Shown: piece after piece, positions 1,540 to 59,200 of the stretch
Layout: each line of letters starts with the position of its first letter
Numbering within the stretch: position 1 is the stretch's first letter
Source of the DNA: Callorhinchus milii
Lineage: Eukaryota
NCBI RefSeq assembly: GCF_018977255.1
Contig: NW_024704751.1
Span: forward strand, 16,554,001 to 16,618,000
Direction: 5' to 3'
DNA length: 64,000 bases
Translations under genes and position numbers: made by a program
The notes under the pieces: generated by a model
What the model saw: the letters and a program-made list of their open reading frames with translations, nothing else
What the model was told of the DNA's origin: nothing
Databases searched by the model: none

Positions 1540-1882
1540 CCGCCGCCTCTGCCGCTCTCACCCTCCGAACCAGGCAACGACTCCGCAGCCAGGACCCGGC
1601 CCGGTCCACCCACTGGCGGCCGCTGTACATGTCGATGAAGGCCGAGGCCCTGTGGGCGGGGAGGCTGACCACACAGCAGCAGCAGCAGGAGGAGGAGGCC
1701 GCCGCCGCCTGAGCCCGGGACCGGGTCCGCCCCGGGGCCTGGGGTTGCGGTCGGTGCCGATAGTGGAAACACGCGAAGCCGCCGCTCTCTGTGAACTGCG
1801 AGAAGTAATTCCTGAGGTCGGCGGAGCGCAGGGCGCGCGGGATGTCACAGACCGCCAGACAGACGCAGCCTCTCGCCGCCAT
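1540..1882 (-). CDS. GPATCH3: GPATCH3 coding exon 1, duplicate copy (remaining exons would lie left of the window)
   Basis: MAARGCVCLAVCDIPRALRSADLRNYFSQF...FACFHYRHRP, 343 nt with GTAACG donor; same length as 13235-13577. Confidence 0.85.
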
Positions 1883-5016: not shown

Positions 5017-5214
5017 GATCCGACCCTTAACTTCTCAAAATCCAGAAGCTCATCAGTGGCCCGACGGATTACTTAAAATCTGATTTTTTTAAAACTTGAA
5101 ATAAAAACTACTAAGCACTTTGTTTCCAAGTCCAGGGTAATTGTATTGTACTGCACCCTACCATCCCTCAGCATAGAATCCTAACCACACACTGTTTCCA
5201 CAGTATTTTATACA

Positions 5215-5244
5215 NNNNNNNNNNNNNNNNNNNNNNNNNNNNNN
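5215..5244. other. Assembly gap (30 N)
   Basis: Run of N seen directly; another single N lies at 30150. Confidence 1.
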
Positions 5245-13577: not shown

Positions 13578-15120
13578 CTTTGATCCTGGCGGAGCGCTGG
13601 CGGCACATGCGCACAGCTCGCCCGGCGGGGGCGGAAGGGGAGGGGTTGAACGGTACCATCTTTGATCCTGGCAAACAGGGCCGAATTGGCAACTTGTCTC
13701 TCGATCGCTGGGGGTGTACGTTAGTTTCTCTTTCCCGGCAGCGTCGTGAGACCCTTTGAACTCAAGGTCCGAAAACTTTGCACCTTGGAGTATTGGACAA
13801 CATTTTTGAAAAAAAAAACTACACGATGTAAAATACTTGACATAAAATACCAGCGATGCCCGAGAGGGGGAATTGCAGTGCTGGGGGAGCGGCTATGCTG
13901 TCAGTGGTGCCAACCTTCAGATGAGACATGGGGGTGGGGTGGGGTCGGGGTCGGAGAGGGTCGAGGGCAGCGGGGGATGAAGATGACCGAAGGCGCGGTC
14001 TTCAAGGAGGCACGGCGGGAGGGGAAGAGGCGGAGGGACTGCGGGATGAAGGTCCAGCGGGCAGGGGCGGAGTGGGCAGAATAATAATAATAATAATAAT
14101 AATCCTTGCATTTGATATAGCGCTTTTCACGTCGGGAGGACGTCCCAAAGCGCTTCACAGAACACACTGTAAAGTGAATTGACTGTATATTTGTGGGCAA
14201 ACGCGGCAGCCAATTGCGCACAGCAATGTCCCACAAACAGTCGTAGATTGAAAATGACCAATTTATTATTGTTTTGGGTTTTGGAGGGATTATTATTAGG
14301 CTCTGTGTGGAGTAAAGAAACTTGCCCAAGGTTTCGCCCTGACCTGGAATTGAACTCAGGTCTCTCACTTGCAAAGCGAGTGCTCTAACCACTGAGCCAC
14401 AGGACTCCAGAAGGCCCGCCCGTCAATGGTGGGGCGATCGAGGCGGGGGGATGGAGGCGGGGGATGTGTCGCAGGATGGAGCCCGCCGAGCAGAGGTTGG
14501 AAGTGGGTCAGGAGGTCGCGGTGGTAGGGGGAGCAAAGCCATGGAGAGCTTGGAAGGCGAGGACCAGGATCTTGAGCTGTATCCTGTGTGTGGTGGGAAA
14601 GCCAGTGGAGTCGGGACTTGTACAAGGTTAGCTCTCATCCAGCGCTTTGGGATGTCTTCCCGACATGAAAGGCGCTCTATAAGGGTAATTTTGTTGTTGA
14701 CGTCTGACTTACAAACACAGTCACTATGCTTTATAGTAACTCCTGCAAAATCCCTTAAGGTATTTTGATAACTTCATAAGCTACTATATCTAATGCAAGT
14801 ATTTTTTAATAAAAAAATAAAATGTGTAGTTTGATACAGCAATGTTGCATTTGGTTGCAGAATCATTGCTGCTTGGAGAGGGAGAGCGGCCGAGGTGGCC
14901 GGTGTTGATTTTTAAAGTCTCTGAATTCATTGCAATGGTGTATTTAAATTCCTTACTCAGTAATACCCAACATATGCAAAATACTTTTATTTATGATAAA
15001 AAATAAATTAATACAAAACAAATTGTTCACAAAATGGAGGAGGTAAAATCACAGAGGAAAAGGAGTAGATGAGAGAAGCAGCAGTACCCTAGCTGTTGAT
15101 CTCACTCCCACCCCCGTTCT

Positions 15121-16717
15121 TCATTGCTTGGTGTAAAACATCTGGATAAGCAGCTGGTTTATTTCAGTGCTCCCAATCACAGGCCTGAAAAAGAGCTCAG
15201 TGACAACACCAGCGCTGATGGTTCTCAGTGCAGATACAGTGAGTAAGATAGGGGCTAAGCGGCTTGTATCCTTAGGTTGGAGGGGTACTAGGACCTCATG
15301 GAGCACTCGCTGGGCTTCCCTTTGCAGGCTCTGGACGTATAGAGTAGCTTGTAGTCCTGGCAGGTCTGGAAAGTACATTAATATAAGAATAATTATCCTG
15401 CATTTTAATAATAATAATCCTCGCATTTGATATAGCACCTTATCACAATCTTGAGACGTTTCACAGCACTTCACAGATTATACTAGAAAGTGAATTGATT
15501 GTATATTTTGTGGGCGAAACATACTCTTTTACACAGTCTTTATATGTTGAAAGTGTCAAAGTGCTTCACAGGTAATTGCTTTCTACTGCATATTTGTAGG
15601 CAAATAGAGACTTTACCAATCAAAGATAATATACAATAATCCTTGCATTTGATAATGCACTTAAATAATAATAATAACAATTGTATTTGATATAGCACCT
15701 TATGTCTTCGAGACGTCTCAAAGCGTTTCACAGAATATACTGTAAAGTGAATTGACTGGATATTTTGTGGGTGAAACGCGGCAGCCAATTGCGCACAGCA
15801 GTAGCCCAACATCATATCTTTGAAAAGTCTGTATAATTACTCTGTATTTTGTAGGTGAATACCACAGCAAATTTGCACACAGCGTGACTGGAGTGAATGA
15901 CCGATTGTATTTGAGGGCTTGTTGGCTAGGACACTGGAAGAAACTCACTTCCCCTTTTTTGAATAGAATCATGGATCTTTATTGCCCATCAAAAAACAGA
16001 GAAATGGGACTGAGGTTTAACATCTCATCCGAAAGATGGCTCCTCAATTCAAGTGGAGGAACAAGCACCAGCACCACAAGGGCCAGATGACCTCTTTCTG
16101 CAAGTTCTTTAAATCTGTATCAAGGTCTGCAGGCCCTGCATGCATAGGCAGCACCAGAATAAACACCAGTACTCACCAGCACTGAAGAGAACAGCTCCCT
16201 TCAGGTAAGCAAACTCCTTGGGTGTTAGGTCCAAATCCCAGAACTTGTTCAGGCACAGTTTTATTCTCTGCACATCAGCTATGGAAGGTTGTGTACTCTC
16301 AGCTCCCACCACGCCAGGTAGCTCTTTTCCATTCAATAGGAGTCTTTTGAGCAAACTTTGCACTGGGATCTCAACTACCTCAAAATTCACTCCCTCCTGA
16401 GCCAATCCCAGCAGGAAGAGAGGGGCCCAGCATGACCCCAGCAGCAACAGCTGGTCCTCTTTGGGTAGATGGTGGAATGAAGGGAGATTCTGCATGAAAC
16501 TGACCGTCTTCACGAGTACCTCAATGACTGTGGGACAGGTGATGTGGGGAGTCTTCAGACACACCGTCCTCTTGATTTGACAGGTACAGCTGTGATGAGA
16601 GAACTGGGAGTGTGGCTTGACAACAGCCTGCTGGCTGAGGATATTATAGAGGATTGCATTCCGTCCATACCTAGAGGCACAGTGGCACTTATCAAGCAAC
16701 ATGTTGACACAAGCCAT
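15121..16717 (-). CDS. NR0B2: Small heterodimer partner (SHP), orphan nuclear receptor lacking a DNA-binding domain, 2 exons, 261 aa
   Basis: Exons 16177-16717 (GTGAGT donor) and 15121-15365. NR boxes ILYNIL and LLKRLL; LBD motifs [49 protein letters not shown]. Position between GPATCH3 and NUDC is as in human. Confidence 0.96.
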
Positions 16718-16905
16718 GATCCGACCCTTAACTTCTCAAAATCCAGAAGCTCATCAGTGGCCCGACGGATTACTTAAAATCTGATTTTTTTTAAAACTTG
16801 AAATAAAACTACTAAGCACTTTGTTTCCAAGTCCAGGGTAATTGTATTGTACTGCACCCTACCATCCCTCAGCATAGAATCCTAACCACACACTGGTTTC
16901 CACAG

Positions 16906-16947
16906 TATTTATACAGAGTTTTCATTCAGTAAGTCAGATGACCTTGG
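16906..16947 (-). promoter_or_regulatory. NR0B2 core promoter: TATAAATA (16906-16913) and NR5A/ERR site CCAAGGTCA (16939-16947)
   Basis: Both motifs read directly on the minus strand, about 190-230 nt upstream of the ATG. LRH-1 (NR5A2) is an established SHP activator in mammals. Confidence 0.6.
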
Positions 16948-18899: not shown

Positions 18900-19127
18900 G
18901 CCCGGTTGCTAAGGGCCCGGTTCCCGCGGCCGCCACCTGAAGCGGAGGGAAACCCTGGTCCCGCCCACTTTCCTCTGATTGGCGCGGCGTCGGGCGTCCC
19001 GCGAGCGCCGGTTGCTGATTGGCTCCTCGGACTGCCCGTCAGATCGCTGACCCCCCGGAGTCAGTGTTTCCGGGTCAGCACCGGCCTGCAGCGTGGAAGC
19101 ATCCGAGCCGCACTCCGACAGACAGCC
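18900..19127 (+). promoter_or_regulatory. NUDC CpG-island promoter
   Basis: CpG-rich; GC box CCCGCCC near 18960, two reverse CCAAT (GATTGG) near 18977 and 19017, ETS-like TTCCGG near 19068. Confidence 0.6.
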
Positions 19128-24397
<5,270 letters not shown>

Positions 24398-27947: not shown

Positions 27948-30075
27948 AATTACACATGGAGCAGTGGTGCTCCGGAGGAGTCCGTCTCCGTGTCCTGAAG
28001 AGACTCATCTTTAGGAGAGCGCGATCCTAGAAAACAACAGGACCAGCATCAAGTCAGATACCACACAACATGCCCCCGCCACAGCTCCTAGTCCTGTGAG
28101 AAGCTTCCCCCCACCTCACCTCCGCCCCCACCCTGTAGCAATTCTGTTATTACCTACCCTCTCTGCCCTCCACTCTCCCGGATCCTAAACCTCCTCCCAC
28201 CGCTCGGGTCCTAATTCCTAATCCTGACTGTTCAGTGCCTTGGGACATGAAAGGCGCTTTACAAATGTAATTTTGTATTGTACCTCTAAGAGTCTGTGGC
28301 ATGTTCCGCACTATAACGTCCAACGAGTCCTCCACCGAGATCTTCAGAGTCAGGTCTACCTCAAAGAGACAAACTGATTACAACAACACCCCACTCTCCC
28401 CTCCCCTTTCCCCCCCCTCCCCCATTGCATCAAGCATATCTCTATTCTGAGGCTGAGTCCAATCATTCATTTCTAAGGGAATTAGATGAATGTTACAAGG
28501 GTGTGAGGGAAGCGATCGGGGAGTGGGACTGGTCTCAGTAGCTCATATAGAGGAAAGGATATTCTGTGAAGCCCTTTGAGATGTCTCAACCGCACGATAA
28601 GGCGCTATATGGGGAGTATATGAGTCCCGCCTCAAAACCCTCCTCTTTGACCATGCCATCGGTCACCCCCTGCCCCTCCTCTCCCTTCTGCCCCCTGACC
28701 CCAGCTCAGGTCTGAAATGCTGTGCAGTGTCCAGCGCCTTGGGACATCCTCCCGACATGAAAGGCGTTATACAAATGTAATCTTGTTGTTGTAAGCAGAT
28801 CGGGGAGGTAGGGAGGTGAAAGGGCGTGAAGGCATATCTAATGTAAGGATTAGTATTATTTTTATAAAGCATTAGCACAGACGGGATTAACCAAATGGCC
28901 CAGTTATGTGCTGCAGCACTCTGAGGTTTAGTGACTACACCAGGAGTCAGCCCACTGACTGGTGAAATATTTAGTGCAGGAAGAAGGGACAGACTCACCA
29001 TCTGTGCTATTGTGGAACTCGCTGATCTGGGTTTTCAGGTCGGAGTGGTGGGAGCGGCTTTGACCTCGATCACTTCTGGTTCCAGGACCTTGGGTTTCTT
29101 CTTGGCTTTGCGTGTGCTGATGCGGACAATGCCAGTTACAATGCGGCACTCGGCCACTTTCTCGTCGATCTTGTAGTCCTTGGTGATGCTGTCGATCAGC
29201 TCGGTTATCTCGCTGCTCTTACTGATGAAGGTGGTGTCGGAGGTGCACTGAGCCAACATGTTTATCTGGTGCATACTGAAGAGCTCCAGCAGCTTCTTAT
29301 TAATGTAATCATCCAGCTCGGCGCTGGACATCGAGACGTTCAGAGTATTATTCTCTAGGTCCTCGTCGAAATAGGAGGGGAACTCGTCTGAGGCGAGCTT
29401 GTCACAGGAGGGGAGTGTGCTCACGGGGCTCTCCGACTTCCCAGAGATACACGTAGTCGCGTCCTTATGGCAGGAGTCTGTGGACCTGCTCCCCACACGC
29501 CACGGAATCTGTTGCCCCCGAAACTTCACGTCATAATAATTGAAGCTGCTGCCTCCCAGGTTGGGTTTGTTTTGGCTGGGTGCCGGGTTTAGGGGGATTC
29601 CACATGTGGGGTTCGTATACCTGGGTCCGTGGTTTTCAACGTGCTTCCCGTCAGTGGAAGATTCTGAGCTCTCGATGCAAGGAACATAATCCCCTCTGCA
29701 GACCCCACACGTCACCACGCAGCACACAGCAGCTCTCAGTGTCTGCCACATGGAGCAGACGCGGGACACACACCCGCCACAACCATCGAGGTGCTCCGAG
29801 CTGCCCGCCGTGCCCGGGATAAACCCAATGTTCTCCGAGTTATTCCCATTGGAATCTCTGGCATCTGCTTTGTAGCTGCGAGATTTCCCAATGGCTCCTC
29901 TGTCCGGTCGCCTGAAGGGTTTTTTCACTGCTCGGTGAATCTCTGGGGTTGTCCTATCGTAAGCTTCCAAACTCAGGGACTCGACGGAGCCGGGGGAAAG
30001 CGCTGAACGGCCCAAACCATCTGTCAAATGGTGTCCATATTGCCCTGGTGTGGCTCGCCTCCCAGTTCCAGCCAT
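27948..30075 (-). CDS. KDF1: Keratinocyte differentiation factor 1, 3 coding exons; as assembled, interrupted by TGA at 29035-29037
   Basis: Main exon 28999-30098 (ATG 30075) with INKKLLELFS.HQI..LAQCTSDT.F..KSSEITELI.SITKDY and V.GIVRISTRK. Exon 28284-28355 encodes DLTLKISVEDSLDVIVRN. Last exon of about 27948-28026 encodes TDSSGAPLLHV*, matching the recalled human C-terminus. Confidence 0.9.
28150..28281 (+). mobile_element. Short L2-type 3' tail fragment inserted at the KDF1 exon donor
   Basis: cagtgccttgggacatgaaaggcgctttacaaatgtaattttgt matches the 3' end of the L2 at 60350-60430. Confidence 0.75.
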
Positions 30076-33000
30076 GGCTCAGTCATTGAGTAAAGGGCCT
30101 GGTGGGAGAGAGCAAATATTCATAGTATCCACAATTATTAGTAGCCATCNAAAAAATCCCTCCCCTAAAAAATAATAATTATTTGTCTCTCAATCCATGA
30201 CTGTTTGCTGTGCACAATTGGCCGCCACGTTTCACTCACAAAATATAGTCACTTCATTTTACAATATATTCTGTGAAGCGCTTTGAGATGCCTCAACAAC
30301 GGCACTGTATAAAAAAGAGGGTTATTATGGAAGTTGATATTCATCCCAATGGTCACTATCTCTCCCCACCCGCTGCCCCCAACTGCTCTGGCTTCACCAG
30401 CACCCAGGTAGATAAGTTACCGGGGACAGGATTTGTCCCACCCGGTCACTATACAAGACAACCAACAGGAAGGTTGCAGAAAGCTAACCAGCATCTTGCA
30501 CTTTGGGTTCCTAATACTTTGGCTTCTACCAATGCTGCACCTGTGGATGTTGAAGCCCAGGCAAGCAGGGCGTGTGTTACTGCATGCACGCGTGTGTGTA
30601 TACACACATGAAATTTCCTAACTCCATGCGACCAGAACAGAATTGTACACTCCAGAACTGAAGCACAGATGCTCCACACTCTCTGCAGGTGGAACAGGCG
30701 AGAGTGGGTCCCACATCTCACCCCCTGGCAGGGTTAGGCTGGGCTCTGCCTTGAGATACCAACACAGTAGCCTCTCTGACTGTCACAAGAAAACAGGAAG
30801 TCACAGGGTGCTTATAAAATACATGAACACAGTCATTTATTGTTTGTGTATTCTATAACTGGAAGCTGACAGAGAGAGGGCTCACTGTACATTGTTCCAT
30901 TAGCTAGAACATGGACAAGATTTCCACACAACACTGACACATCAAACTCCATATCCTCCTTTCTCCTTCCTTAAACGTAATGCCTTCACAGAGCAGTTCA
31001 GTGCTGCTGGGTGGCACAGAACGACTACTCACTACTACTGATAAACACCCTGAGGTCAGTAACAATTTAGGGAGTTTCTGAATCAAGAAAGCAAACTTAG
31101 TTTGGAGTCAAAGGAATGAGTAACACACACACACACACTCACACAGTGACAGTAAAACACACTTAAATGATGCCGAACCAATGACTAGGTTTGTACTCAG
31201 ACCCCATAGCTGGGGGCCCTGTTATCGGCCCCTGTTCCCTGCCACCCTAGCCCCAGCCCTGGGAGGCTGAGAGATGCCAAGTTCTATTGCTCAAAAAATA
31301 AATGGCCACAACGACAGTGCTGTGTACAAAGGGAGTGTGAGGCATGAATCACATGTTGGATTTTATCTGGTCCCAATGCAGTGCTCCACTACTCTACCAA
31401 CAACAACAAATTGCTTTTATGCAGCGCCTTTCACATCAGGAGGACATCTCAAGACACTGGACAGTGAAGGCTTTGCACCTGAATTGGGGTTGGAATCAAG
31501 GGGAGTGGAGGGCAATGGGGATGGGGGTGGAAAGAAGGCACGAGGGAAGATGGTCGAAGAGGAAGATCTTGAGACGGGCCTTGAAGGAGGCAACAAAGAG
31601 GGCAAAAATGGTGGTGGCAAAAAGGCCAATGGTGGAGTGAGCAGGGCAGGAACATGGAGCAGGCCAATACCTGTCAAGCCAATGGGGACGGGCAAGGATG
31701 GGATGATTGGCTCACTGAGGTTAGTGTGGGAGATGACACGAGCTGCAGATTTCTGAAATAATCTGCGGCGGGAAGAGTTGGGAAGTTCGGCAAGCAGGTA
31801 GTTTGCAAGACCTGCATGACGGCCTCAGTAGCCTGAGGGGCGAGGTAGTGGCGGAGACGAGTGATAAAGCTGATGCCTCTTGAATCGGAGCCGATCTGAT
31901 ACACGCAGGAGAAACAAAGAAATAGAAACAAAGAAACCTACATCGCAGAAGGAGGCCATTTGGTCCATCAAATCTGCACTGGATCACAGAACCAAGATTG
32001 TTTTAGTCCCACTGCTCTGCCTTATCCCCATTACTGCCACTCTGCTCCCACCCTCTGGAACTCGATCCCTCAGTCGCTCCATCTCGCCCCCTCCTTCGCC
32101 ACCTTCAAGACCCATCTCAAGACCCTCCTCTTCGACTGTGTTTTTGATCTCTCTGCTTCCCCCCCGCCCACCCCAACCCTTAGCTCAGGTCCGCAACTCT
32201 GTCCAGCGCCTTGGGACGTACTCCTGACGTGAAAGGTGCTATATAAATATAATTTTGTTGTTGTTGAAACCCCTCTCTATCATAAGTCTGTCTACTGCCC
32301 TCTTGAAAACTACAATGGTCTCCGCCTTCACTCTCTCACCCAACTCGGGGGTATGTTCCACTCCCCAACTACTCTCCAGGTGAAAACATTCCTCCTAAAT
32401 TCTCCTTTCACTATTCTTGTGACTATGTTGTGACTGTGTCTCCTAGTCACTGACTCCCCTATCAATGGAAATAACTCTCCCTATTTACCCTAGCAAAACC
32501 CATCATATTTGTGCCCACCTCTATCAGGTATCCCCTCCCCACTCAACTTTCTCTTCTTTAATAAAAAGTTGTGTGCATCCTCTCCGTGTGCTTTGTGATT
32601 CAAACCCAAATCTGAGAGCATTATTGCACCCCCTCCCAATGGGAGAAAATATTTCCACTGATCAGTGAGTCAGTAACTGACCCTAGATAACATGCAAAGG
32701 AAAGTTACTAGGATGATACAGAGAAAAGTGGTTTAACCTCAACCTGTCTAATCTATGAGCAGAGACTGGAGGAAGTGGGTCTATCTTCACTGGAACAGAG
32801 TTTAAGTTAATTAACAAAGAAGCAAAGAGGGGGATTTGGAGGTTTTTTTTTACAACAGGATGTGGGTGCAGTGGTCAAGGCAGGAACCATAATAATAATC
32901 CTTGTATTTGATATAGTGCCTTATCACATCTTTGAGATGTTTGCTTCATAGAATATACTGTAAAGTGAATTGACTGTATATTTTGTGGGCGAAACGTGGC

Positions 33001-39962: not shown

Positions 39963-40188
39963 GTATGTGGGGTGGGGGCGGATGGGAGCTTTAGGAACTT
40001 ACAGCCACAGCTGTACGACCCAGGGGAAGGAGGGGCTTGTGCAAAAAGCAGCACATCTGACAGGTCTGAAGCCAATCGTAGGAAATGCGGTGTGGATGAT
40101 GATGATGATGATGATGGGTGTATAACGCTGGCCCGATGCTTCCAGAAGAAGCAGCAGCTGGGCAGCACCAAGCACACGGCACAGAGAG

Positions 40189-40662
40189 ATGGGGAGGTTC
40201 AGGGAGAAGCAGCTCAAGGGCAAGACCGAGGCCCCAACAACAATAACGTCAACAGCAGCAGCAGCAACAGTAACAGAGGCCGACAGCTTTACAAAGGAGA
40301 CTGGGCTGCTGAAGGGCTCGGTCAGTGCCCCCGAGTCGCGGGCTATGACTCCCAGCAGCAGCATGGAGTTTGTGCAGGCCAGGAAGCGGCTCCTGGAGAT
40401 GGAGCAGCGGCAGAGACACATCCTGGAGATGGAGCGGCGTCTACAGCAGCTGCACGATGGCTTTGTGCAGGCCGAGCAGGAGGTGGTGGAGCACGGCGAG
40501 ATGGTGAGCAGAATCCGGACCGGGACGGTTCAGGGAGAGGTCTACCTCTCGGCCTTCAGGCAGCAGATGAAGAGCCTGAAATATAACACAAAGCACCGAG
40601 CTCCTCTGATCTTCGCCTCCGTCTTCGGGCTCAGCAGCTGTGTGCCGTGGACGGGGAAATGA
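40189..40662 (+). CDS. TRNP1: TMF1-regulated nuclear protein 1 orthologue, single coding exon, 157 aa
   Basis: ARKRLLEMEQRQRHILEMERRLQQLH..F..AE and P.IFASVFGLSSCVPW align with recalled human ARRRLLEVEGRRRLVSELESRVLQLHRVFLAAE and PALLASALGLGGCVPW. Lies next to KDF1 as in human. In-frame TAA upstream at 40123; AATAAA at 41041. Confidence 0.9.
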   Translation: MGRFREKQLKGKTEAPTTITSTAAAATVTEADSFTKETGLLKGSVSAPESRAMTPSSSMEFVQARKRLLEMEQRQRHILEMERRLQQLHDGFVQAEQEVVEHGEMVSRIRTGTVQGEVYLSAFRQQMKSLKYNTKHRAPLIFASVFGLSSCVPWTGK

Positions 40663-40699
40663 AACCCAAGGGACAGAGTCACAGCAGCTGCAGCTGTCA

Positions 40700-40860
40700 C
40701 GCTCCTCACCGTCACCCTGGCAACCTCACTGGTACCCTGACATCCTCACCGTCACCCTGGCAACCTCACCGGTACCCTGACATCCTCACCGTCACCCTGG
40801 CAACCTCACCGGTACCCTGTCATCCTCACCATTACCCTGGCAACCGCACTGGTACCCCTA
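40700..40860 (+). repeat. 40-bp tandem repeat, about 4 copies, in the TRNP1 3' UTR
   Basis: Unit catcctcaccgtcaccctggcaacctcaccggtaccctga is repeated directly. Confidence 0.9.
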
Positions 40861-43800
40861 ACCCCTTTCCCTGATGCTCTTCTCTATGTGTTTGCACTGT
40901 TCTGGGGTCAGACAGCAGCAGGTCTGTTATGTAACCATCAGCTTCGCTTCCAGCAGTTCCCAGCGCTGCTGATCCACAGCCACTGAATGTACCGATTAGC
41001 TTAAGAATGTCGATCAATCGTATGTAAAATGTGTCAATCTAATAAAAAGTATATTTCAACGAACAAGTGTCGCTCTACAACTCCTGATCAAAATAATAAT
41101 AATAATTCTTGCATTTGAGACGCCTCAAAACACTTCACAAAATATACTGTAAAGCGAATTAACTGTTTTGTTTTGTGGGTGAAACCTGGCAGCCAATTGT
41201 GTACAGCGGTGCCCCACAAATAGTCATAGATTGAGTGAGCCAATTTTTTTTTTTAGAAGTGATTATTATCCCCGGAAAAGCGATCTGCCAATCGACCGGG
41301 TTCCGGCAAGTTCCTACTTACTGCTAGGTAAACAGAGGCATGTGGAGTAATGAAACTTGGCTGAGGCTTCACCAGCCCGGGAATCGAACCTGGGTTCTCC
41401 TGCTTGCAAGGCGAGCACTCTAACCACTGAGCTACAGGGTTCCATATTAGCATTCAGAGCACTTGTCACGAGATGGAATCACAGGCTGGTTTTCCCACTC
41501 TGCTATTATGCTGCTGTGCTGAGTACTTAACCCTTGGCTTTCTGAAATGCTCCCACCTGAAGAGCACCATATAAACGCAAGTTGTTGAAGGGACAGGATG
41601 GTGTAATATCCAGGTTCGGGTGGAAGCCGGCCAATTCAGCGCCCATATTTTGGGGTGTTTGACACATGCAGAAACTCATCACTATGCTTAACAATATCCA
41701 CAGTTCCCAGCCCCGCTGATTCACAGCCTCTGAATGTACTGATGAGCTTAAGAATGTCAATCGATTATGTGTAAAATGTGTCAATCTAATAAAAAGTATA
41801 TTTCAATGAACATGTGTCATTCTACAACTCCTGATCATAATAATAATCCTTGCATTTGAGACGTCTCAAAGCACTTCACAGAGTATACCGTGTTCCGTGC
41901 ATCCCACCTATTCATGGAAATTCTCAAGGTATATATTGGAATGGAACCCACACTCTCTCCCTGGAGGGACACATCCTACTTACCTAATTCCATAGAGTAT
42001 TAAGCGCAGGTTGGCAAGAGCCAAGGCTTGGGAACTCCAGAGTGAGCAATGAGAGTCTAACCAGCAAAAACTGCACAGCTTGCCATTGAGAGCACTGTCT
42101 GGCAAGCTCTCCTACTGCTTGTCCACCCCGCCCGTTAGGGCTTTAGCTTGTGGGGTTAGCAGTAGCTGAGTGGGAGGATTCCCTGCCCCCAGTGAATGGA
42201 TTGTCCTCCATCCCTGTCAATGCGCCAGGCTGGCTGAGCTGCATCAGCAGCCCTGGAGTACTGTGGACCCGCCTGGCTCAGGAATTGGACTGCCAAGACC
42301 ATCAGAGGATTGGTCCGATTCTGACATGCTGTTACCAAAAAACAGATCACCTTGGAGACAGTTCAGCTCCACTTACCGCCTCCCTCAAGAGGATAGTCTT
42401 GTTTGTACTTTACATTCTATTAGTTATTCACATTAAGCAATGCACATATGAAGATTTACAAACGGGGGAGTGTTGAAGGATTGGACAGTGTAGGGCAGTG
42501 GTGGCCAACAAAATATGTTTTAAAATTGATTGAATACTTCTTGATATATGGAAAAAAAATCCAAAAATATTCAATCAAAGAAAAATGATGGAAACACTAT
42601 TGATTGATCACGCTTACCTAGATTAGTGCGAATGTTCAAAGGGCCACTTCTGACCCACACTGGCAAAGAGGGAACTGAATAAATATTTTTTTTGTCAGCT
42701 GGGTGTCTGACATGATGAAAAGCCCCATTGTGCCTCATTTTATATGGGACAGACACATTTTTTGTGGTTTTATGCCCCCTTCTGAAATTGTAATTTCTGT
42801 TAATCTGCAGATATCTTTGGTCCAGACGTTCAAGTTTGTTCAGTGAAGTTTAAAGGGACACTTTTTTTCAGGCACCGGCAGTTTGAATAAAAAAAATACA
42901 ATATTAGGTGAATGTAGCATCTGATTTACCAGCAAACTGTAGCCGACACATGAGAGTTTAGCGAGTTTGACGCCATCTGTTCTCTGTTTGCTTGGAGGCA
43001 ACATGTTAGGAATGACATCTGGTTTCGCAGAAAGTATCAAAATATTTAAGGGAAAACAATATATAGATGATGGCGAAGGCAATAGAGGGGGATTAGGAGG
43101 GATGGAGGCTCATACGGACTAGTTGGACCAAATGGCCTGTTTCTATGCTGTAACTATACAACGGATCGCAGTGATGAGACGTACAATTTGCACAGATTAA
43201 CTGTTCTGGTTCCAACCTGCAGCATCATGTCACAGCTATAAAAAAAAATGCAGCCTGTACAAATCATATTATTGCCAAAGAGAAATTTTTATTTATAAAA
43301 ATAATAATCCTTGCACTTGATGTAGCACCGGATCGCATCACTTCACAGAATATATTGTAAAGTGGATTGACTATTTTGTAGTCAATTACACATAGCAGTG
43401 TTCCACAAACAGTCATGGATTGAGTGACCATTTATTGGGGGGGGGGGGGGGGGGGGGGAGAGAATTATTATTCCCGGAAAGTAATCCACCATTCGACTAA
43501 TAACTGGGTTCCTACTTACTGGTAAACATAGGTGTGTGGAGTAAGCAGACTTGCTTAAGATTGTGCTCTGCCTGGGAATCTAATCCAGGTCCACTCGCTT
43601 GCGAGGCAAGAGCGTTAACCACAAAGCTACGGGACTCTAAAATATTTAGAGTGTTCCCAAGTCGTATCTTGTCCTTTGGACTTTACATCAAGCCCACAAG
43701 CCTCCAGAGCAAATTTGCACCTAATAATATGAGACCAAGAAGCTCTGGAGATTTCCCATCAACTCAGTATAAGAGCAGCAATTGTGTGAGCTGATATTTC

Positions 43801-50200: not shown

Positions 50201-53200
50201 TATTCAATTACCTTCCAAAAAAGTTGGCCTCTTTGATGTCAGTGGTCGTGTTGCAGTGGCCGCAGAACCGAGATTTATAGTCATAGCCTCGCTCTCTCAG
50301 CACAACTTCATCGTCTGAGATGGAATCCTTTCGCCCGCTGGACCGGATACGGATTGGGGCATTACCACCACTCTTCTTATCATCAGCTACAAGAATAGGA
50401 ACACTTTTCAGCTCAACTCACAAGAAATAATAATAATAATCGTTGCATTTGTTATAGTGCCTTAACACGTCTTTGAGACGTCTCAAAGAGCTTCACAAAA
50501 TATACTGTAAGGTGTGGTGACTGTATATTTTGTGGGCGAAACGAGTAAGAGCCATAAACTGCAGCTTGTGTCCTCATCAACAGAAAGCATTGCATGCATA
50601 CAGGGAGCAGGGCTGCAGTGCCAAGGGAACTGGAGGTTAGTGTATGAGGTGAGGAATATATTGGGGGATATACATCAGGACAGCACAGTGACTGAGCACA
50701 ATGACCAGGGCAACACAGCGACTGAATATCGTTGTGACTCACAGCTTTCACTCTTAGAGAAGAGCATAGCTTTAATGTCTCTCTCGAGGGCATCGCAGGC
50801 ACTGCTCTGTGCCTGTTCAGGAAAGCGTCCTTTGAAGTCTTCCAGACACTCCAGTGCTTCTGTGACGTACTTCAACTCGAACAGGCAGCGGGCGAGGCGG
50901 AAATGGGCCTTCAGGTGCAAAGGGTTCAGAGAAATGGCTTTCAGACAGTCTCTCAGAGCATCATAATGGTCTCCGTCCCTGGAAAACAAGAGGAACAGAT
51001 CTCAACATCGCTCACATCACTGATCAGGAAGCCGTAATGTATTACTGTACAATACAATGCAATTAACATTAGAAGCTTATGTCGTTGTGAATGTAACACT
51101 ACAATTCAGCATCAATTCTCATGGTACCTGGTGAAATGTGTCTCACTGCAATTTCATCCCCATGCAGGGCACCGTTTAGATTGTAAATAGGGCAGAAGGG
51201 GAGGATCCAGACAGTGAATATTTTAGTTTAATTGTAATCATGACGGCTACCGTGTGTTGCTGATTCATACACAGAGCAATGCAGACATAGCAAAGCAGCT
51301 GAACCCATGTGGCATTGTCCTGTGCTAAAAACAGAAGTTGATTCCATTTCACAACCAAAGCAAGTTCTGTCCTGAATGTGCAACATGACGGTCAGCACAA
51401 CCTGCGTTTCACTACAATCAGAAATAGGCTTCTTTAAATAAAATTTCATCCAGTGCTGTTTATGAGTAACTCAAGCCTCAGGCGCAGTGACCTCACTGAC
51501 CGGTAACCTCACTGACCGGTCTGGATCTGAAGCATGAATTATTCTTACCACTTGCGTTTCATGAAGGCCGCTGCTCTATTGCCATACAGCATGGCATTCC
51601 TGGGCACCTGGTACACAGCCTTGCTGTACAGCTGAATGGCTTGTGTCCACTGCTGTCGGGAGAATGCGTCATTTGCCTGCTGTTTGAGCCTCTCTAAGTA
51701 TGCTGGAAGTTCACAGGCAGTACTGCAAAGGAACAACAAACAATAGTTCATGTGACTAATGAGCCACACATGAATGGTGAATCATACACTACAGTAGAAG
51801 CAAATTATAAGGCACTTCTTTACAACTCTGGCTAGTTACAAGATGAATGCTCATAGGGGGGAAATTGGCAGCGCCTTGAAAGTTGGCTTTTTTTTAAGCC
51901 CAGGAAACTGTCGGCTTTCCCCCACCCACACCCACCCAACCACCCACCCACACAGAGTGAGTGCCCCTGTGCTCCAGCCCAGCTCTGTATGTGTCCTGTG
52001 GTACCTGCTCTGTGATCGGGTGTCTGCCAGCCGAAATCCATTACTGTGGAGATGAATCCCATTTGTAACTCCATTTGTTGTGGACTTTCCATTCTGCAAA
52101 TCTGTGGAACAGGAAAGAGATCAGTGAGAACAGAATGTGTCATTCCCAAGCTGCAGATAAGGAGGTAAGAGTGCTACACATGCTGAAACACTCACCACTG
52201 GATGAAGGACACTTCTTTGGCAGGAGGAATGTATATGGTTTCTGTTTATTTGTGAGATCAAACAAATAAACCTGAAATGATAAGAACATTTATTTTACTT
52301 TCTTGAAATGACTGCAGTTTAAGCATCTGACTCCAAAACAGAAACTGTTTTGTGGAACATTAATAATAATAATAATCTTTGCATTTGATATAGCGCTTTT
52401 CACGTCTTCTCGACATCTCAAAGCGCTTCACAGAATAGACTGTAAAGTGAATTGATCGTATATTTGTGGTCGAAAAGCGGCAGCCAATTGCGCACAGCAG
52501 TGTCCTACAAACAGTCTTGGATTGAAAATGACCAATTTATTATTTTTTGTTTTGGAGGGATTATTATTAGGCTGTGTGGAGAAAGGAAACTTGCCCAAGG
52601 TTTTGCCCTGCCTGGAATTGAACCCAGGTGTCTTGCTTGCAAGGCGAGTGCTCTAACCACTGCGCTACAGTGCCTTATCATGTTGCTGAGATGTCTCAAA
52701 GCGCTTCACAGAACAAATAAAAATGGTCATTCAATCCACAACTGTTTTTGGGACATTGCTGTGCGCAATTGGCTGCTGTGTTTCGCCGACATAATGTACA
52801 ATCAATTCACTTGATAGTATATCCTGTGAAGTGGTTTGAGATGTTTCAATGACATGATAAGGCACTATATCAAATACAGGGATTATTATTATTAGTAGTA
52901 AATGGGAATTGATTAACAAACACTGCACCCTCACCTGTTCTCCTCCCATGTTGACTAGGAGCTCTGTGCCATCGGGACTGAAGGCCACATATGTGGCCAC
53001 AAGCACTCGAAGCCTGTTGTTATAATCGGGCTGTTTTACTGGAAGATGCCCTGAAAAGGAGGAGTATTATCAGGTGTAAGTGTGACAGTGACCCCAATGC
53101 ATCTCGGTCTTGGAATCCAGAACAAAGGGGCATAATCTTAAAATTAGATCCAGGCCATTTAGCAGTGGAAAGCTGGCATTCTCTCTCTCCCACAAAAGGC

Positions 53201-56200
53201 TGTGGATGCTGGATCCATTCAAAGTTTCAAGACTGAGGTGGATAGATTTTTGTTAGGTAAGTGTATCAAGGGATATGGGGCAAAGGCGAGTATTTGGAGT
53301 TGAGGTACAGATCAGCCATGATCTAATAGAATGGTGGAACAGGCTCTAGGAGCTAAATGGCCTATTCCTGTTCCTAGGTCTTGGAGTGCAACCACCAGCC
53401 AAGGTCTCTTGCTCATGTTCAATGACAAACAACATTCCTGTGAAGCTCTGACAGAGAATCAATGCGTTTAAAAAGAACAATTAACCTTTCTATTAAGTGT
53501 CACAAACTATTGCTTATCGTGTAAGTAGCTGAGCCGTACAATAGCCTAGGTTCAGTTCCCTGTCTGTGCTGAGTGACACATCTCAGCCAGAGATACAGTG
53601 GAGTTCAGTACCTCTGGGTTAGAAAAGAGAAGAAAATTAGCAAGGAATTCTGCTCCCAATTACAATACAGAGACCCCCTGCTGGAAGTTTTAATTTGGCG
53701 AACTGTTGTTTTCCCACTTAATTCTACTTGAGAGCCCCCCCCGCCCCTTTTTCCACTGGACACATGAAGACGCAAAGGTACCTGCCACGTAGTACTGGAC
53801 AGCTCCGTCTGGCACAGACTTATACCGGTCACAAAATGTGTGGACTCCTGCTGTAGAGCTCGGCTTCACTGCCTTCCTACAGAACACAAAGCAGGGAAGA
53901 TTGTAGAGACTGTAGAGAAAAACACAGTCAGGACCGGAACACAGTGGGGAAGGGGTAAAAGGGAAACCTCGAGGAGGAGAGTCTCTGCTCTGTTCCAACT
54001 TCACTTCACAAAATTAATCCCAAATTGTAGTTTACGTGAGGCCTTCACTTTTAAATCTCATTGTAATAATAATAATCCTTGCATTTGGTATAGTGCTTTA
54101 TCACATCTTCGAGACGTTTCAAAGCGCTTCACATAATATATTGTAAAGTGAATTGACTGTATATTTTGTGGGCGAAACGCGGCAGCCAATTGCGCACAGC
54201 AGCGTCCCACAAACAGTCATGGATTGAGTGACCAATTTTTTTTAAAAAAGGAAATATTACCCCTGGCAAAGCGATACCCCAGTCAACTGACAACTGGGTT
54301 CCTGCTTATTGCTAGGTAAACAGAGGTGTGCGGAGAAACTCGAAACCATTCTGCACTCAGCGTTCTTGCTGTAGCTGCCACTCTGCATTATCTTACAACA
54401 TACAGTCGTGGCTGAAATGACAAAGCTCTAACAGGACATGAAAGTGTCATTGTCATACTCTACTAGTGAATGCTCTGCGAAAATTACCAAATTGTGCGAA
54501 TGCAATATCCCCCTCGAGCCTCAACTCTTCTCATGAAAACATTTAGCCTCTATTGTAGGCATGATATTTTAAACCTTGGGTGGGGGGAACGTTGTCCCCT
54601 GATTTCCAGTTTGCTTTGTGACCAACGTAAAAGTTGCAACTTACTCCAGCCACACCTTACCTGTGATTGTGGATCATGCGAACATCATAGACACGGACAA
54701 AAGGCCCACTGGCTCCCACAGCCAGGTAATTATTGTCCTGAGGATTGACAGCCAAACACTTGGCTTCCACGTGCTGTCCACAGTACTCGGTCAGGTCCAC
54801 CAGCACCTCCGAGCGCTTACTGCTTTCTCTCAGGTCATACTGTCTGCAACAGCAAAGCACATGCAGCAGGTTAACAGACAAGGAGTTGCATCTTTATTAT
54901 CCCTCTGCATTTGTCCGCCTGCTCTCGTCCATTGGAAACTATTCCTTAGCTTTGCACCACTCGTGGTAAATGCTTTACGCCAGACCAGGGTATTCCGAGA
55001 TTAATCTTATACAGAATAATAATAATTCTTGCATTAATATCACAACTTTCACAATGGGAGGGCCTCTTACACATAGCAAATTTACTGTAAAGTGTAGTGC
55101 TGAACCACCTGTACACAACTGTTCCAAGCTCTGCCTGTCAGAAACGAGAATCTTTGATCCAGAGCATTCACTGGCACAATTTGGTAGACAGTTGTTAATA
55201 GAGACGAGGAGTAACCAAACTGCATTCCTGAATGCAGAGTGACCGATGCTGAGGAGAAGCAGGAAGTTGTGACCCTGAAAAGCCACCACCTGAGTCTGAC
55301 TCACAAGTTCACTGCTACCCCCTCCCTCTCTCTCTCTCCAATACACACACACACACACGAAAGGCACTAAAGTAGTACAAGATGTTGTACTGTCTAAACT
55401 GGCAGAAACTGTGCAAACAGAAACCAATTAATTCAACTCTCTAGAATTGTTCAAAGTTGATGAATTAAAATCTTTAATTTGTAATTTTCAAACTAGTAGT
55501 GTATCCTCCTTATTACCTATCTGCAGCTATGAGCTCCACAGTACGTATAGCTTCGAGATTATCTCTCCATAATACAATTGATATTGACATGCAACATCTT
55601 GCACGTCAAAGAAACACCTCAAAACTTCAAAGAATGAGATTCATTAGAAATGAAGTGAACAAAGATGGAAAATCAATACCGAGGTTGGATCCCAGGCCAG
55701 TAGACCATTTTATAATTTGTGACATTTCTTATTGGGGTTTCATAAGAAATTCCAGAAAACATAAACTTTGCTCCGGACGTTAATCCTGAGTTTCCGCTAG
55801 TTGGTGTGACATACTTCCAGTTACTTCCAATTCCCATTCATGCAACATTGATTTATTTTGAAGCAATCCCATTAAGAAATGCTGCAGTGATACGGACTGA
55901 GACTGATCCCCACAGCAACAGGAAGCAGCACCAAGAACCTCGCTCTCGTGCTCTGTCGGGATTTGAACCTTCCTCGGTAAGAATTGGGAGATTCTGGGGC
56001 TGTGCCCCATCCCATACCTGACTGTCCCGTCCTCTGCAGCGCTCCAGAAGGTGTTGGGCCACATGGGTGCCGCTGCAATGCGTTTTACTCGATTGGTGTG
56101 TTCCCCAAACATGTGAATGGTTTCTTTCACCGTCAGGTCATGGACGTGCACTTTGGAGTCAGCGGCTCCGGTAATGAGGGTGCGATCGCCAGAATGTGGC

Positions 56201-59200
56201 AGAAACTAGCGGAAAAGCAAAAGCAATTTAGGTGAGAAGAGAGAATAAGTGCAGTAACACGATCAACCCTGACAGCTAGACACTAACTACACTAACCCAC
56301 AGAGACAGAGCCCCACCCTCAGACAAACACGTATTATTAATTGGCCAAAATGTGGTTCCAATTAGTTTTTATTTCATCACATTCAGGACAGGGTCATTTC
56401 AAATTACAGTGGAATTCTAGAATTTAGTCAAACTGATGGTTTAGGGCAAGTGGTTTAGCAATTTGCATTTATAGAGCTCCCTTCACATAGAGTAATGGCG
56501 CCATAGCACTTTACACAAACGGTGGCAGCGTTCAAACTCAAGTATTATTATTAAATGAGATGGTGTTTCCACACCGTATCCTCTGCCCCTGGAAATGAAA
56601 CAGCTATTCCACAATGAACCTCCTTGCACTGAATTTAACAATAATGACCAAAATGACCATGGAGGTACAGAGTTAATGTGAGATCAGTGGTGGTACCTTG
56701 ACTGAGAAGATGTTAGCTGTGTGTCCAGTGTGCATGGTGAGTAGTTTCTTACAGCTAAAAGGATCCCAAAGAATTGCGTGCTGATCGTCCGAACCAGAGG
56801 CCAGCAACCTAACACCAAAGGAAGAAAGAATGAGTGTCTAAATTAAACGGAAATAAAGTGCAGAGCTGAGGCTTTCTGTGCAAACTCTTTGCACCAGAAA
56901 TAGCACTATGCTGTTTGGTGAAAATCACTGTAATGTTGTACTCGTCTCCGGTCCGTACCAGGTTCTCCCCTGCCTGAGGCTTGTGTCCTGCATTGGGCCC
57001 ATCCACTGATCTGAGCCACTCTGATCCTGAGTGGCTGTATCCAGAAACCTCTGAATTCTATTACGTTCAGCATCAGTGAATGTACAACACCCTGGGATAC
57101 CTGGTATTCTTGGGATTACTTCTAAACCCAACCCCAGACACTGTGGAGTTCTGTAGGTCAGTGGTTAGAGCACTTGCCTCACAAGCGAGAGACCTGGGTT
57201 TGATTCCCGGCAGGACGAAACCTTGGGCAAGGTTCTTTCCTCCACACGCCTGATAATAATCCCTCAAGAAAGAAAACCCACAATAATAAATTGGTCACTT
57301 CATTCCATGACTGTTTGTGGGACACTGCTGTGCTCGATTGGCTGCCGTGTTTTGCCCACAAATATATAGTTAATTCACTTTACAGTATATTCTGTGAAGA
57401 GCCTTGAAGACGTGATATATCAAATGTCATATATCAAATGATTGTTGTTATTATTATAGGTATAGTTAGCTTATTAAAACACTAACTGTTTTCTATTTCT
57501 TTGGTACTTTACTGCCTTTAAAGTAACAGTCCAGGAGCCGAGTGTAAGACCAATACTTACTGGCCCGTCTCATTCCATTCAAGGCAGTTCACACACCCAG
57601 AATGACCCTGTGGCACAGAAAGAGACAGAACGATTCTCATTTAATAAAATTTAAAAGGATTGCAAAGGTTTGTTGAATACAGATTGCCCTGCATTACAAT
57701 GTCAAATGTGATAAGGGCTATATCAAATACAAGTATTATTATTATGTTGAAATAATAAACACATCAGAAAAAAAGATTTTCTCCACACTAGAGGCCATTC
57801 AGCCTATTATGTCTGGCCTACCGGTCTGAAGAAGCTATTCATCGCACACCCTTGCCCTTTGTATTTTTATTCTTAAATATTTATCCAAACCCTTTTGAAA
57901 GCCATTACTGATTCTGCTTCAATAAACAATACATTTTCTGTAAATATACAGCAGACCGTGGATTACTTGCTGCTAAATTTGTGTTAATTTACTTTTGGAT
58001 AAAGCTCCGGTCATTTTACCAGTATGTTAGTGCAATGTGAGCGAGCAGCTGTCATGGGTGTGTAATGCAGGATTTAAACTTACAACCTTCAGAACCAGAG
58101 TAAAAGTTCTACCAACTGAGCTAAGCTGATTCTTTGCAATTTAACCTGCAGATTGCAGGGAGTAATAGCAAACAAACAGCTGATATCTCTTCATATCACC
58201 AGATATATACAGCAGTGTTTGAATTAGATACCTGATCAGTGCTGCCACAGGAGCAAAGCTACTCTTGAAGATAAAGTTAAAAAATGCTCAAGAATCTCAC
58301 CTCTAACTCGGACTCCAGGCCAAGACGCTTTATAAACGGATCCATCACATGATAGCGGCGCTCAAACCACAAGGCACTCTTCTCCTGCAAACACAGTCAC
58401 ACAGTCACAAAACCCAGTTAGCCATCAGTCTCTCCGTACATGGATTTTCATTATAAAATTAGCCTCCTGATGTCTGCCAGTGCGTGTTGGTCTGGAAGGG
58501 AAAGCGCCACCCTTCAGATGAGATGTTACACCAAGGTCCCGTCTAATCCCATCCTAATCCCTGACTGTTCAGCGCCTTGGGACGTTCCCCCGACATGAAA
58601 GGCACTTTTACAAATGTAATTTTGTATGTATTTATCTGCCTGTTCAAATGGACGTTAAAGATCCTATGGCATTTGAAAAGAGGAGTGTTTCTCCCCATGA
58701 TTATCATTATTGTTGTTGTGATTCTTTGCAACAATAGTGAAAAACAGAACAGGGAAAAGTAATCAAACTCCATTCAACACAGACCAGCTGTGTACAGTGT
58801 GTGTCCCTAATTCATGTCTCTGAAACTTACTTTACTGGAACATTCAAATGGGCATCTTAGCCACACATATCTGACTTGTTTCCAATTTTCTTCAGCAGAT
58901 TAGTCACTAAATGGCACGCAAATCTATGGCAGATGAGGCAACGTCAAGCAGTCCAGTTATCAGGAACCCTACAAGTAGCACAACCACTCTGCATGCTAAT
59001 AGACTCCTAGTGAAAGCATCTCGAGCAAGTAAGCCCAACACAGATAGGCAGTGTTACAAAGGCAGGGTCAGCGCTTAGACTGGGAGTGTTACTTGGGTAG
59101 GAGAGGTAAGCTAGGGCCTATCCCAATTATCCCAACTTCATTCCCAATTTGAACAAACTAGCAGATCAAAGGCTGGTGTCCTGTTTTATTTAAACACATT

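Follow-up and report, generated by a model that had tools for sequence, protein, structure and literature searches.

Within a 64,000-nucleotide stretch of elephant-shark (Callorhinchus milii) DNA, hereafter the window, the forward strand carries a single-exon ORF of 157 amino acids (40189..40662, +). An initial annotation had taken it for an orthologue of TRNP1, a regulator of cortical folding, descended from an intronless syntaxin. TRNP1 has so far been regarded as a low-complexity nuclear protein of mammals whose coil is generic. The locus raises two questions: does this coil come from a syntaxin, and what might a fish protein built around it do?

The residue numbers and coordinates given for the ORF all proved right, including those of H102 (CAC, 40492-40494) and C151: positions 40378-40662 run from A64 to the TGA stop, i.e. 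the last 94 codons plus stop, and the protein does end 3 residues past W154. The start codon has a good Kozak context, the N-terminus resembles that of the Mustelus protein (P0125), and an in-frame stop lies upstream, before 40126. Contigs from sequencing runs cover the gene unspliced on the + strand (39981..41290), at 39981-40760 in run X1, 40032-40760 in X2 and 40248-40760 plus 40790-41290 in X3, and contigs of three runs (two studies) span the ORF without a splice, stop included. As RNA control we used a spliced gene at 19072..23366 (+), which from its translation we take to be NUDC; since seven of its joints are spliced in X1-X3 and none in X8, the former are RNA runs and the latter is a DNA run. 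The coding region is therefore intronless, as claimed, and a search of the RNA contigs, which show presence, not level, and drop rare isoforms, found no longer spliced C-terminus. Among the substitutions listed over TRNP1, all fall in the 3' UTR. The contigs break near 40760-40790, at a 3' UTR tandem repeat, and AATAAA occurs downstream of the ORF at 41041 and 41788.

This repeat has a unit of about 39 bases and occupies positions 40700-40870 of the window. In the RNA-covered 5' region we also observed an (ATG)n repeat (40096-40125) that gives rise to a 9-codon upstream ORF, and a 36-codon out-of-frame ORF (40136-40246) that overlaps the TRNP1 start; these upstream ORFs might possibly damp translation. 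Elsewhere in the window, at an exon end (21609-21610), the X1-X3 contigs have C where the assembly has T, and the DNA run X8 also has C at 21610, which suggests an allele or an assembly difference at a splice donor.

A search of 1.84 billion representatives with a profile yielded 40 matches, headed by TRNP1-type proteins, with syntaxins next and a small number of partial or low-complexity rows. All syntaxins rank below TRNP1 of coelacanth, shark, bichir, amphibians, squamates, birds and mammals, and 18 of the 20 matches looked up have jawed-vertebrate names, mostly TRNP1 or TRNP1-like. Jawless or invertebrate TRNP1 was not seen among the 40 matches, whose 50% clusters could hide one. In a tree of 40 rows and 75 columns, TRNP1 forms one clade that includes the tetrapods (18 rows, support 100/99), with the elephant-shark protein as sister to that of Mustelus (92/93). 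When the genome was searched with lizard TRNP1, only this locus was found (E 2e-11; next best 3.2), and thus no second copy.

Gene order agrees with these matches. The upstream neighbour is a coding exon at 29035..30078 (-) with a DUF4656 domain (E 1e-76), from which we presume it to be KDF1. At 15121..16735 (-) lies a nuclear receptor gene (Hormone_recep), presumably NR0B2, which has paralogues on chromosomes C3 and C15 and served as paralogon marker, and downstream of TRNP1 lies a WD40 gene, which we take to be WDTC1 (50675..56205, -; WD40 families and exons seen, extent approximate). Altogether, PIG-V, GPN, NR0B, KDF1, WD40, Na/H exchanger and C2 proteins are encoded around TRNP1; in gene names that are partly our assumption, KDF1, NUDC and NR0B2 lie beside it and SLC9A1, WDTC1 and SYTL1 nearby. 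TENT5B was not found on the chromosome that carries TRNP1. The cattle gene list around TRNP1, in the accessible part of PMC12075139, agrees with the elephant-shark neighbours. Family matches, gene order and tree thus bear out the proposed orthology: the gene is the expressed TRNP1 orthologue of the elephant shark.

The left part of the window contains a tandem duplication with a period of about 11.7 kb (1-5214 and 11692-16915, 98.6% identity over 5.2 kb), which includes the NR0B2-like gene and exons resembling GPATCH3. In the first NR0B2 copy two TGA codons interrupt the exon, and an N gap lies at 5215-5244; either the block was duplicated recently and one copy broke, or the assembly is at fault here.

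To what is the TRNP1 helix related? A phmmer search of 177,635 PDB sequences gave 26 matches at E<=10. Syntaxin-1 chains and designed t-SNAREs take the first 24 places, the best with E 7e-7 over aa 58-137, and gp41 (0.49) and syntaxin-7 (2) come next. Syntaxin-1 also came first with a fish profile (E 1e-7), coelacanth TRNP1 (3e-6) and whale TRNP1 (0.005). TRNP1 queries place syntaxin-1 far above syntaxin-7 and Sso1, no Qb, Qc or R chain is listed, and the 33 PDB matches of the fish profile at E<=10 include neither SNAP-25 nor VAMP chains. Past the TRNP1 rows, the significant full-motif matches of the profile are syntaxins as well. The core of the elephant-shark protein scores 43.7 bits on an STX1-type profile (10 rows) and 33.5 on an STX11 profile. 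None of 500 plain shuffles (maximum 14.7) or 500 heptad-preserving shuffles (maximum 14.5) reached 43.7 bits, and the reversed sequence scored 0.0 and 1.5 on the syntaxin profiles; the likeness is therefore not due to chance, and goes beyond generic coiled-coil similarity.

Pfam gave a different picture. The Pfam SNARE family, on which the annotation had proposed to check its claim, was matched neither by elephant-shark TRNP1 nor by any of the 11 relatives scanned, the protein remaining below the cut-offs of both PF05739 (SNARE) and PF00804 (Syntaxin); STX11 of the same genome, at 24.3 bits, also falls short of the 26.8 bits that PF05739 requires. A Foldseek comparison of the model with the PDB, for which a single helix is uninformative, found 0 matches. 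As leads only, the ESM Atlas placed the protein in a TRNP1 cluster by features (0.93), with SNARE-type clusters below 0.9, and by structure put Syntaxin-1B on top, at a TM of 0.84; this value is below the threshold of the tool, and an unrelated bacterial helix comes near it (0.81). That the helix is a convergent coiled coil without syntaxin ancestry, for which the Pfam and Foldseek results and a long TRNP1 branch (1.0-1.9 changes per column) could be invoked, is largely refuted and very improbable, given the heptad-preserving shuffles, the four different queries that put syntaxins on top of the PDB list, and the 14 of 75 columns, many outside the layers, in which TRNP1, STX11 and STX1-type sets have the same consensus residue. 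Judged by sequence, the TRNP1 helix and the Qa SNARE motif of syntaxin-1-type proteins are homologous, and the claim of a Qa syntaxin source is borne out by PDB matches and profile scores. Since it matches the syntaxin fusion helix, the family likely goes back to a syntaxin that shed both its membrane anchor and its regulatory domain. TRNP1 is a family descended from a Qa syntaxin and not a member of the syntaxin family, as it fails the tests of layer 0, Habc and anchor.

An AlphaFold2 model (27 rows) shows one continuous helix over aa 55-137 (40351..40599, +; pLDDT 92-98 for blocks 61-130) that, with the PDB matches, comprises a pre-H3 linker helix, the Qa SNARE motif and a basic linker. We numbered the layers as we take them to run in syntaxin-1A. 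In ungapped register, layers -7 to +8 (40420..40578, +) read I M L L F A V H V I T G L F M L. Layers -7 to -1 (I78, M81, L85, L88, F92, A95, V99) are all hydrophobic, and the plus layers include V106 (+1), I109 (+2), Gly at +4, L120 (+5), F123 (+6), M127 (+7) and L130 (+8). The ungapped alignment proposed for the core holds up to Y119; beyond it phmmer opens a 1-residue gap and pairs K131-Y132 with the KY of syntaxin, so layers +6 to +8 depend on the register. F92 (40462..40464, +), the Qa-typical Phe of layer -3 in the row alignment, is kept in 116 of 117 fish rows and 17 of 23 tetrapod rows, the other 6, all from birds, having Leu; the Mustelus protein also has Leu here. At layer 0, H102 (40492..40494, +) replaces the Gln of all 22 syntaxin rows: His is found in 116 of the 117 fish rows, and the 23 tetrapod rows have Arg (17, hamster and pilot whale among them), Gln (5, frogs) or Ser (1), so that only these frog rows, 5 of 140, have Gln. 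Layer +6, Ala in 21 of 22 syntaxin rows, is bulky or polar in TRNP1. F123 and L130 are peculiar to the elephant-shark copy, the family having N, H or K at +6 and G, T, S or A at +8. The MAxL stretch that follows the -3 Phe in syntaxin has become A/S-E-Q-E. In syntaxin itself, the +6 residue lies opposite a Phe of VAMP2, and the MAxL stretch forms the side that contacts Habc. Several surface residues are kept too: E72, E82 and R108 never vary, R74 and E104 hardly do, and each of the five is the residue found in syntaxin.

No Habc domain had been seen by the initial annotation, and we likewise found no trace of one in 432 six-frame pieces of the window or 153 family rows (best E 2.2). Indeed, the N-terminal region (aa 1-54; 40189..40350, +) is predicted to be disordered, with a pLDDT of about 50 and no secondary structure. 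The Pro-rich N-terminus and Arg-rich C-terminal extension of mammalian TRNP1 are absent here, as had also been stated: residues 1-57 contain 3 Pro, against 18 in residues 1-100 of the whale protein, and there is nothing comparable to the 26-46 residues that follow CxPW in 9 of 9 tetrapod rows examined. The fish rows examined likewise lack the N-terminal 16-residue motif and the Arg-rich C-terminal region of mammals. The net charge is +5 to +13 in 7 of 7 rows.

The elephant-shark protein begins M-G-x-F-R. Teleost and bichir TRNP1 carry, about 40 residues before the helix, a conserved R-R-S-I-S-x-G-D-F motif, absent here, that is possibly a basophilic kinase site. We also weighed whether the N-terminus might be related to the syntaxin N-peptide, but the likeness is too weak and we abandoned the idea.

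Behind the linker, Pro139 opens a moderately hydrophobic tail helix that runs to CVPW (40603..40650, +; residues 139-151, pLDDT 50-65). Its best 19-residue Kyte-Doolittle average is 1.27, against 2.2-3.6 for six syntaxin anchors, and its insertion score +6.4, against -1.0 to -6.6, on Hessa values that we presume to be correct and summed without positional terms. A retained membrane anchor, which had been suggested for this tail, is not supported by these values, and we conclude that the TRNP1 tail is, by its predicted hydropathy, no transmembrane anchor. Nor is it a fish relic, since the hamster and whale tails are equally hydrophobic (1.15 and 1.17). The tail contains a single Cys, not the several of a multi-Cys acylated tail. 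This residue, C151 (40639..40641, +), is a candidate S-acylation site: with P153 it is invariant in 27 of 27 aligned rows, and CxP is kept in 135 of 140 TRNP1 rows.

Which syntaxin was the parent? We found two intronless syntaxins in the genome, STX11 on C3, identical to the record syntaxin-11a of Callorhinchus milii, and a gene on C4, presumably STX19, antisense within an ARL13-like gene; in the spliced syntaxins found (C8, C10), one intron falls at layer 0 and another behind the linker. STX11 and STX19 resemble TRNP1 in being intronless, in lacking a transmembrane helix and in their in-register Pro and terminal CxP, and their chromosomes, C3 and C4, are putative paralogues of C10, which carries TRNP1 and would be a fourth of the set; unlike TRNP1, they retain Habc, Gln at layer 0 and 5-6 tail Cys. 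The post-motif Pro is in register in 114 of 117 fish TRNP1 and 102 of 113 STX11/19 rows, and in 0 of 7 STX1-type rows. R84 and Q94 match STX11 and no STX1-type row. On the other side, R108, lost in 10 of 10 STX11/19 rows, and M59-E60 match STX1-type rows and not STX11/19, the diagnostic columns split 6 for STX11 and 7 for the STX1 type, and fish TRNP1 rows score higher on the STX1-type profile. With syntaxin-1A and other plasma-membrane Qa proteins (PDB 1l4a_B, 2m8r_A, 2xhe_B) TRNP1 shares the stretch from the pre-H3 helix to the juxtamembrane basic residues, and with syntaxin-1A also the -3 Phe and the words L-H-x-x-F and G-E-x-x-x-R-I; it differs in lacking N-peptide, Habc, transmembrane helix and introns, and in the change of layer 0 from Q to H.

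Genome and tree data do not favour one parent strongly. Chromosomes C10, C3, C4 and C15 share gene families, and 7 of the 10 searched have members on both C10 and C3, a count that is not blind because the families were picked from presumed human paralogues. The C3 partners are scattered over 3 to 90 Mb, no member of the dystrophin and ARL13 families, neighbours of STX11 and STX19, was found on C10, and 200 kb around each NR0B paralogue (C3, C15) yielded no TRNP1 or syntaxin remnant (best E 6.8). A clade of TRNP1, STX11 and STX19 received an AU p of 0.26 with 40 rows and 0.43 when 14 long or redundant rows were dropped, and alternative placements 0.09-0.26; free trees put TRNP1 by the outgroup or in a polytomy. 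These trees have one STX19 row and were built without vertebrate STX1A, 1B, 3 and 4. Tail profiles compared by hhalign gave nothing significant against STX11/19 or the STX1 type, and pairwise tail scores are weak for both (8.1 for STX11/19, segment shuffles mean 4.2, maximum 8.7; 2.8 for the STX1 type, mean 1.1, maximum 4.8). From such comparisons, an origin as STX11/19 ohnologue and one as independent retrocopy would stand at about even odds.

NR0B-type genes also lie at C3:41486538 and C15:8833138, each beside SH3BGR and TENT5; as they add to the NR0B2-like locus, three NR0B loci are kept in one paralogon. We also observed a strongly diverged, spliced, transmembrane-anchored syntaxin at C10:10820500-10823300, which is 5.7 Mb away from TRNP1. 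It has Ile at layer -3 and a Pro ahead of layer -1; its nearest row is the C8 syntaxin, and its upstream exons were not found within 50 kb.

The initial annotation had regarded this copy as specially ancestral. This is not supported: His at layer 0 is found in nearly all fish rows, 98 of 113 of which stop 5 residues after CxPW, and scores on the STX1-type profile are similar for coelacanth (43.7) and carp (43.4) and higher for reedfish (49.5), with the caveat that the rows are 90% clusters, teleost-dominated and not independent. The ray-finned (si:ch211-160f23.7 / TRNP1-like), coelacanth (XP_014341065.1) and Mustelus (XP_078064049.1) proteins, 45-53% identical to the elephant-shark one, share His at layer 0 and the short C-terminus; the elephant-shark copy differs in its F at +6 and L at +8, which leave its class unchanged, and shares an Ala-Pro linker with Mustelus. 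With mammalian TRNP1 it has helix, basic linker, CxPW tail and gene neighbourhood in common, at 30-32% identity to the whale and hamster rows; it has His, not Arg, at layer 0, lacks the Pro-rich N-terminus and the motif of the first 16 residues, and stops 3 residues after CVPW. The accessible part of PMC10647097 describes the dog TRNP1 coding region as lying in one exon. Since His and a short tail are so widespread in fish rows, the syntaxin-like state is common to all fish and the change came with the tetrapods. The series would lead from sharks and ray-finned fish (His, short tail) over amphibians (Gln, Ser or Arg, extensions added) to amniotes (Arg), and shows how part of the membrane-fusion machinery may have been rebuilt in steps into a brain-development regulator.

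In frogs (P0140, P0143, P0149, P0153, P0162), which have Gln at layer 0, the TRNP1 tail is shortened to the Pro-to-CxP spacing of STX11/19; because salamanders and fish differ, both traits are probably secondary. Rows P0140, P0143, P0149 and P0153 had been considered as a second, tetrapod-like fish paralogue, which we rejected, as they are frog TRNP1.

What might the fish protein do? The reading that we prefer, at a probability of about 0.5, is that of a non-fusogenic pseudo-SNARE, a soluble or loosely membrane-bound coiled-coil adaptor; it would be non-fusogenic because of the layer changes, the tail hydropathy and the lack of Habc. An intronless syntaxin copy would have lost its N-peptide/Habc half early in jawed vertebrates, after which the hydrophobic MAxL face turned towards Habc could have become EQE or ELR. 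Layers -7 to -1 would have stayed hydrophobic with the -3 Phe while 0, +4, +6 and +8 drifted to H, G, bulky or polar, and variable residues; full zippering with an R-SNARE would therefore be blocked, and the N-terminal half of the motif is predicted to grip other coiled-coil proteins, a contrast between halves that follows from the layer geometry as we presume it to be. Tetrapods would then have added the extensions and turned it into a nuclear condensate organiser; without the Arg-rich extension and the first 16 residues, fish TRNP1 would be less nuclear than the mouse protein.

In the accessible parts of the mouse study (PMC7429739), the Trnp1 coil determines turnover, binds other coiled-coil proteins and assembles in vitro into complexes of 0.5-2 MDa. 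Condensates, proliferation and most of the interactions depend on the first 16 residues, as does the shortening of M-phase by Trnp1 (PMC7429739). The coil is dispensable for the proliferation effect (PMC7429739). C-terminal deletions of mouse Trnp1 (95-223, 140-223) are cytoplasmic (PMC7429739), but they fail to isolate the Arg-rich extension, since they also take away the basic linker, the hydrophobic tail and a portion of the helix, all of them retained in fish. Against the adaptor reading, the basic linker of the fish protein could act as a nuclear signal. A 157-aa protein can, moreover, enter nuclei passively, and the invariant Cys and the co-purification of SNAP29 described below fit a dedicated decoy as well as a generic adaptor.

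Such a decoy would imitate a Qa helix, engage a Qbc SNARE (SNAP29 or SNAP23/25) via layers -7 to -1 and block fusion or set its timing; S-acylated C151 and the basic linker would keep it at membranes, and mammals would retain the SNAP29 contact. We regard it as possible, though clearly on the doubtful side. The -3 Phe and the N-half core are kept across jawed vertebrates, although the Mustelus protein has Leu at -3, and the conserved surface residues (E72, E82, R108; R74 and E104 nearly so) match those of syntaxin. C151 is invariant, and STX11 is membrane-bound via S-acylated C-terminal cysteines (PMC4049605, in its accessible part), but one Cys is a weak anchor next to the 5-6 of STX11/19. 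In addition, in the mouse FLAG-Trnp1 pull-down Snap29 is significant (log p 2.73, difference 4.64, higher in 3 of 3 replicates) and, by 11 name stems, is the only SNARE found among the 351 interactors in the accessible Dataset EV1 of PMC7429739. However, it rests there on 2 peptides and 2 spectra, as one of 351 interactors recovered from nuclear extract after overexpression, and the sheet for the 1-16 deletion, a construct that retains the coil, does not list it. No syntaxin, VAMP, alpha-SNAP or NSF accompanies it: Stx, Vamp, Napa, Nsf, Tmf1, Sec22, Ykt6, Vti1, Gosr and Bet1 are absent from the same dataset, and Snap29 has no mention in the main text of PMC7429739. Moreover, SNAP29 is termed promiscuous in a title cited by PMC5069552, the accessible part of which reports a kinetochore role. 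By analogy, SNAP29 would be the type of partner that a Qa helix binds; we treat it as a lead and not as evidence for any mechanism.

Tomosyn and amisyn, soluble R-SNARE decoys, resemble TRNP1 in having a SNARE motif without membrane anchor in a regulatory protein; they mimic an R-SNARE, whereas TRNP1 derives from a Qa helix and its decoy activity is putative. An extended form of the decoy idea, which we consider a long shot, would make TRNP1 the third genome-duplication sibling of STX11 and STX19 and the first Qa-type decoy, acylated and anchorless, capturing SNAP29; tetrapods would then have given it disordered arms and shifted it to the nucleus. If the sibling/decoy reading were true, the cortical-folding regulator may still act on mitosis through SNAP29.

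Somewhat less probable than the simple decoy is that fish TRNP1 is already a nuclear, short-lived proliferation regulator as in mammals, imported by its basic linker, its ancestry being only history. Helix, basic linker and CxPW tail occur in all members, the nuclear mammalian ones included, the net charge is positive in all 7 rows, and the 5' region has several upstream ATGs, a hint that translation is tightly controlled, but the first 16 residues of the mouse protein are absent, as is the tetrapod extension after CxPW. A working, tail-anchored Qa SNARE that drives fusion, which the full-length motif, -3 Phe, basic linker and terminal hydrophobic stretch might recall, is hardly credible with His at layer 0, Gly at +4, a bulky or polar +6, a tail far under anchor values, and neither Habc nor N-peptide for Munc18. 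With a syntaxin origin, the TRNP1 coil gains a residue-level register and a candidate partner in SNAP29, and zebrafish si:ch211-160f23.7 offers a model for the older TRNP1 function.

Part of this was on record. The initial annotation had expected that a SNARE-like helix might already have been remarked on and that the new part would be how ancestral this copy looks; indeed, the SNARE label stands in UniProt names and in the dog paper (PMC10647097), while Qa assignment and origin scenario were not found in print, within the accessible text of the sources searched. Teleost orthologues are automatically named 't-SNARE coiled-coil homology domain-containing protein' or 'syntaxin-4-like' (UniProt, NCBI). 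The dog paper, in its accessible part, predicts a SNARE domain at 110-171 for the coil, names no class, parent or function, and finds poor identity with non-mammalian sequences (PMC10647097). The TRNP1 gene and its SNARE-domain label are thus already known. The word SNARE occurs 0 times in the main text of PMC7429739 and PMC10032658, and the searchable zebrafish-orthologue literature, including PMC7429739 and two reviews in their accessible parts, holds nothing on TRNP1 origin. The Qa assignment, the fish-to-tetrapod series, the STX11/19 sibling idea and the SNAP29 lead are likewise not in the searchable literature; subscription papers (Volpe 2006, Stahl 2013, Kloepper et al. 2007, 2008) may mention the likeness.

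Our searches of the elephant-shark genome did not find a SNAP29 gene. One copy was found of the next SNAP-25 exon on C3, and the SNAP-25 exon before it is present as two near-identical inverted copies 10 kb apart, at C3:92148555 (-) and 92158123 (+).
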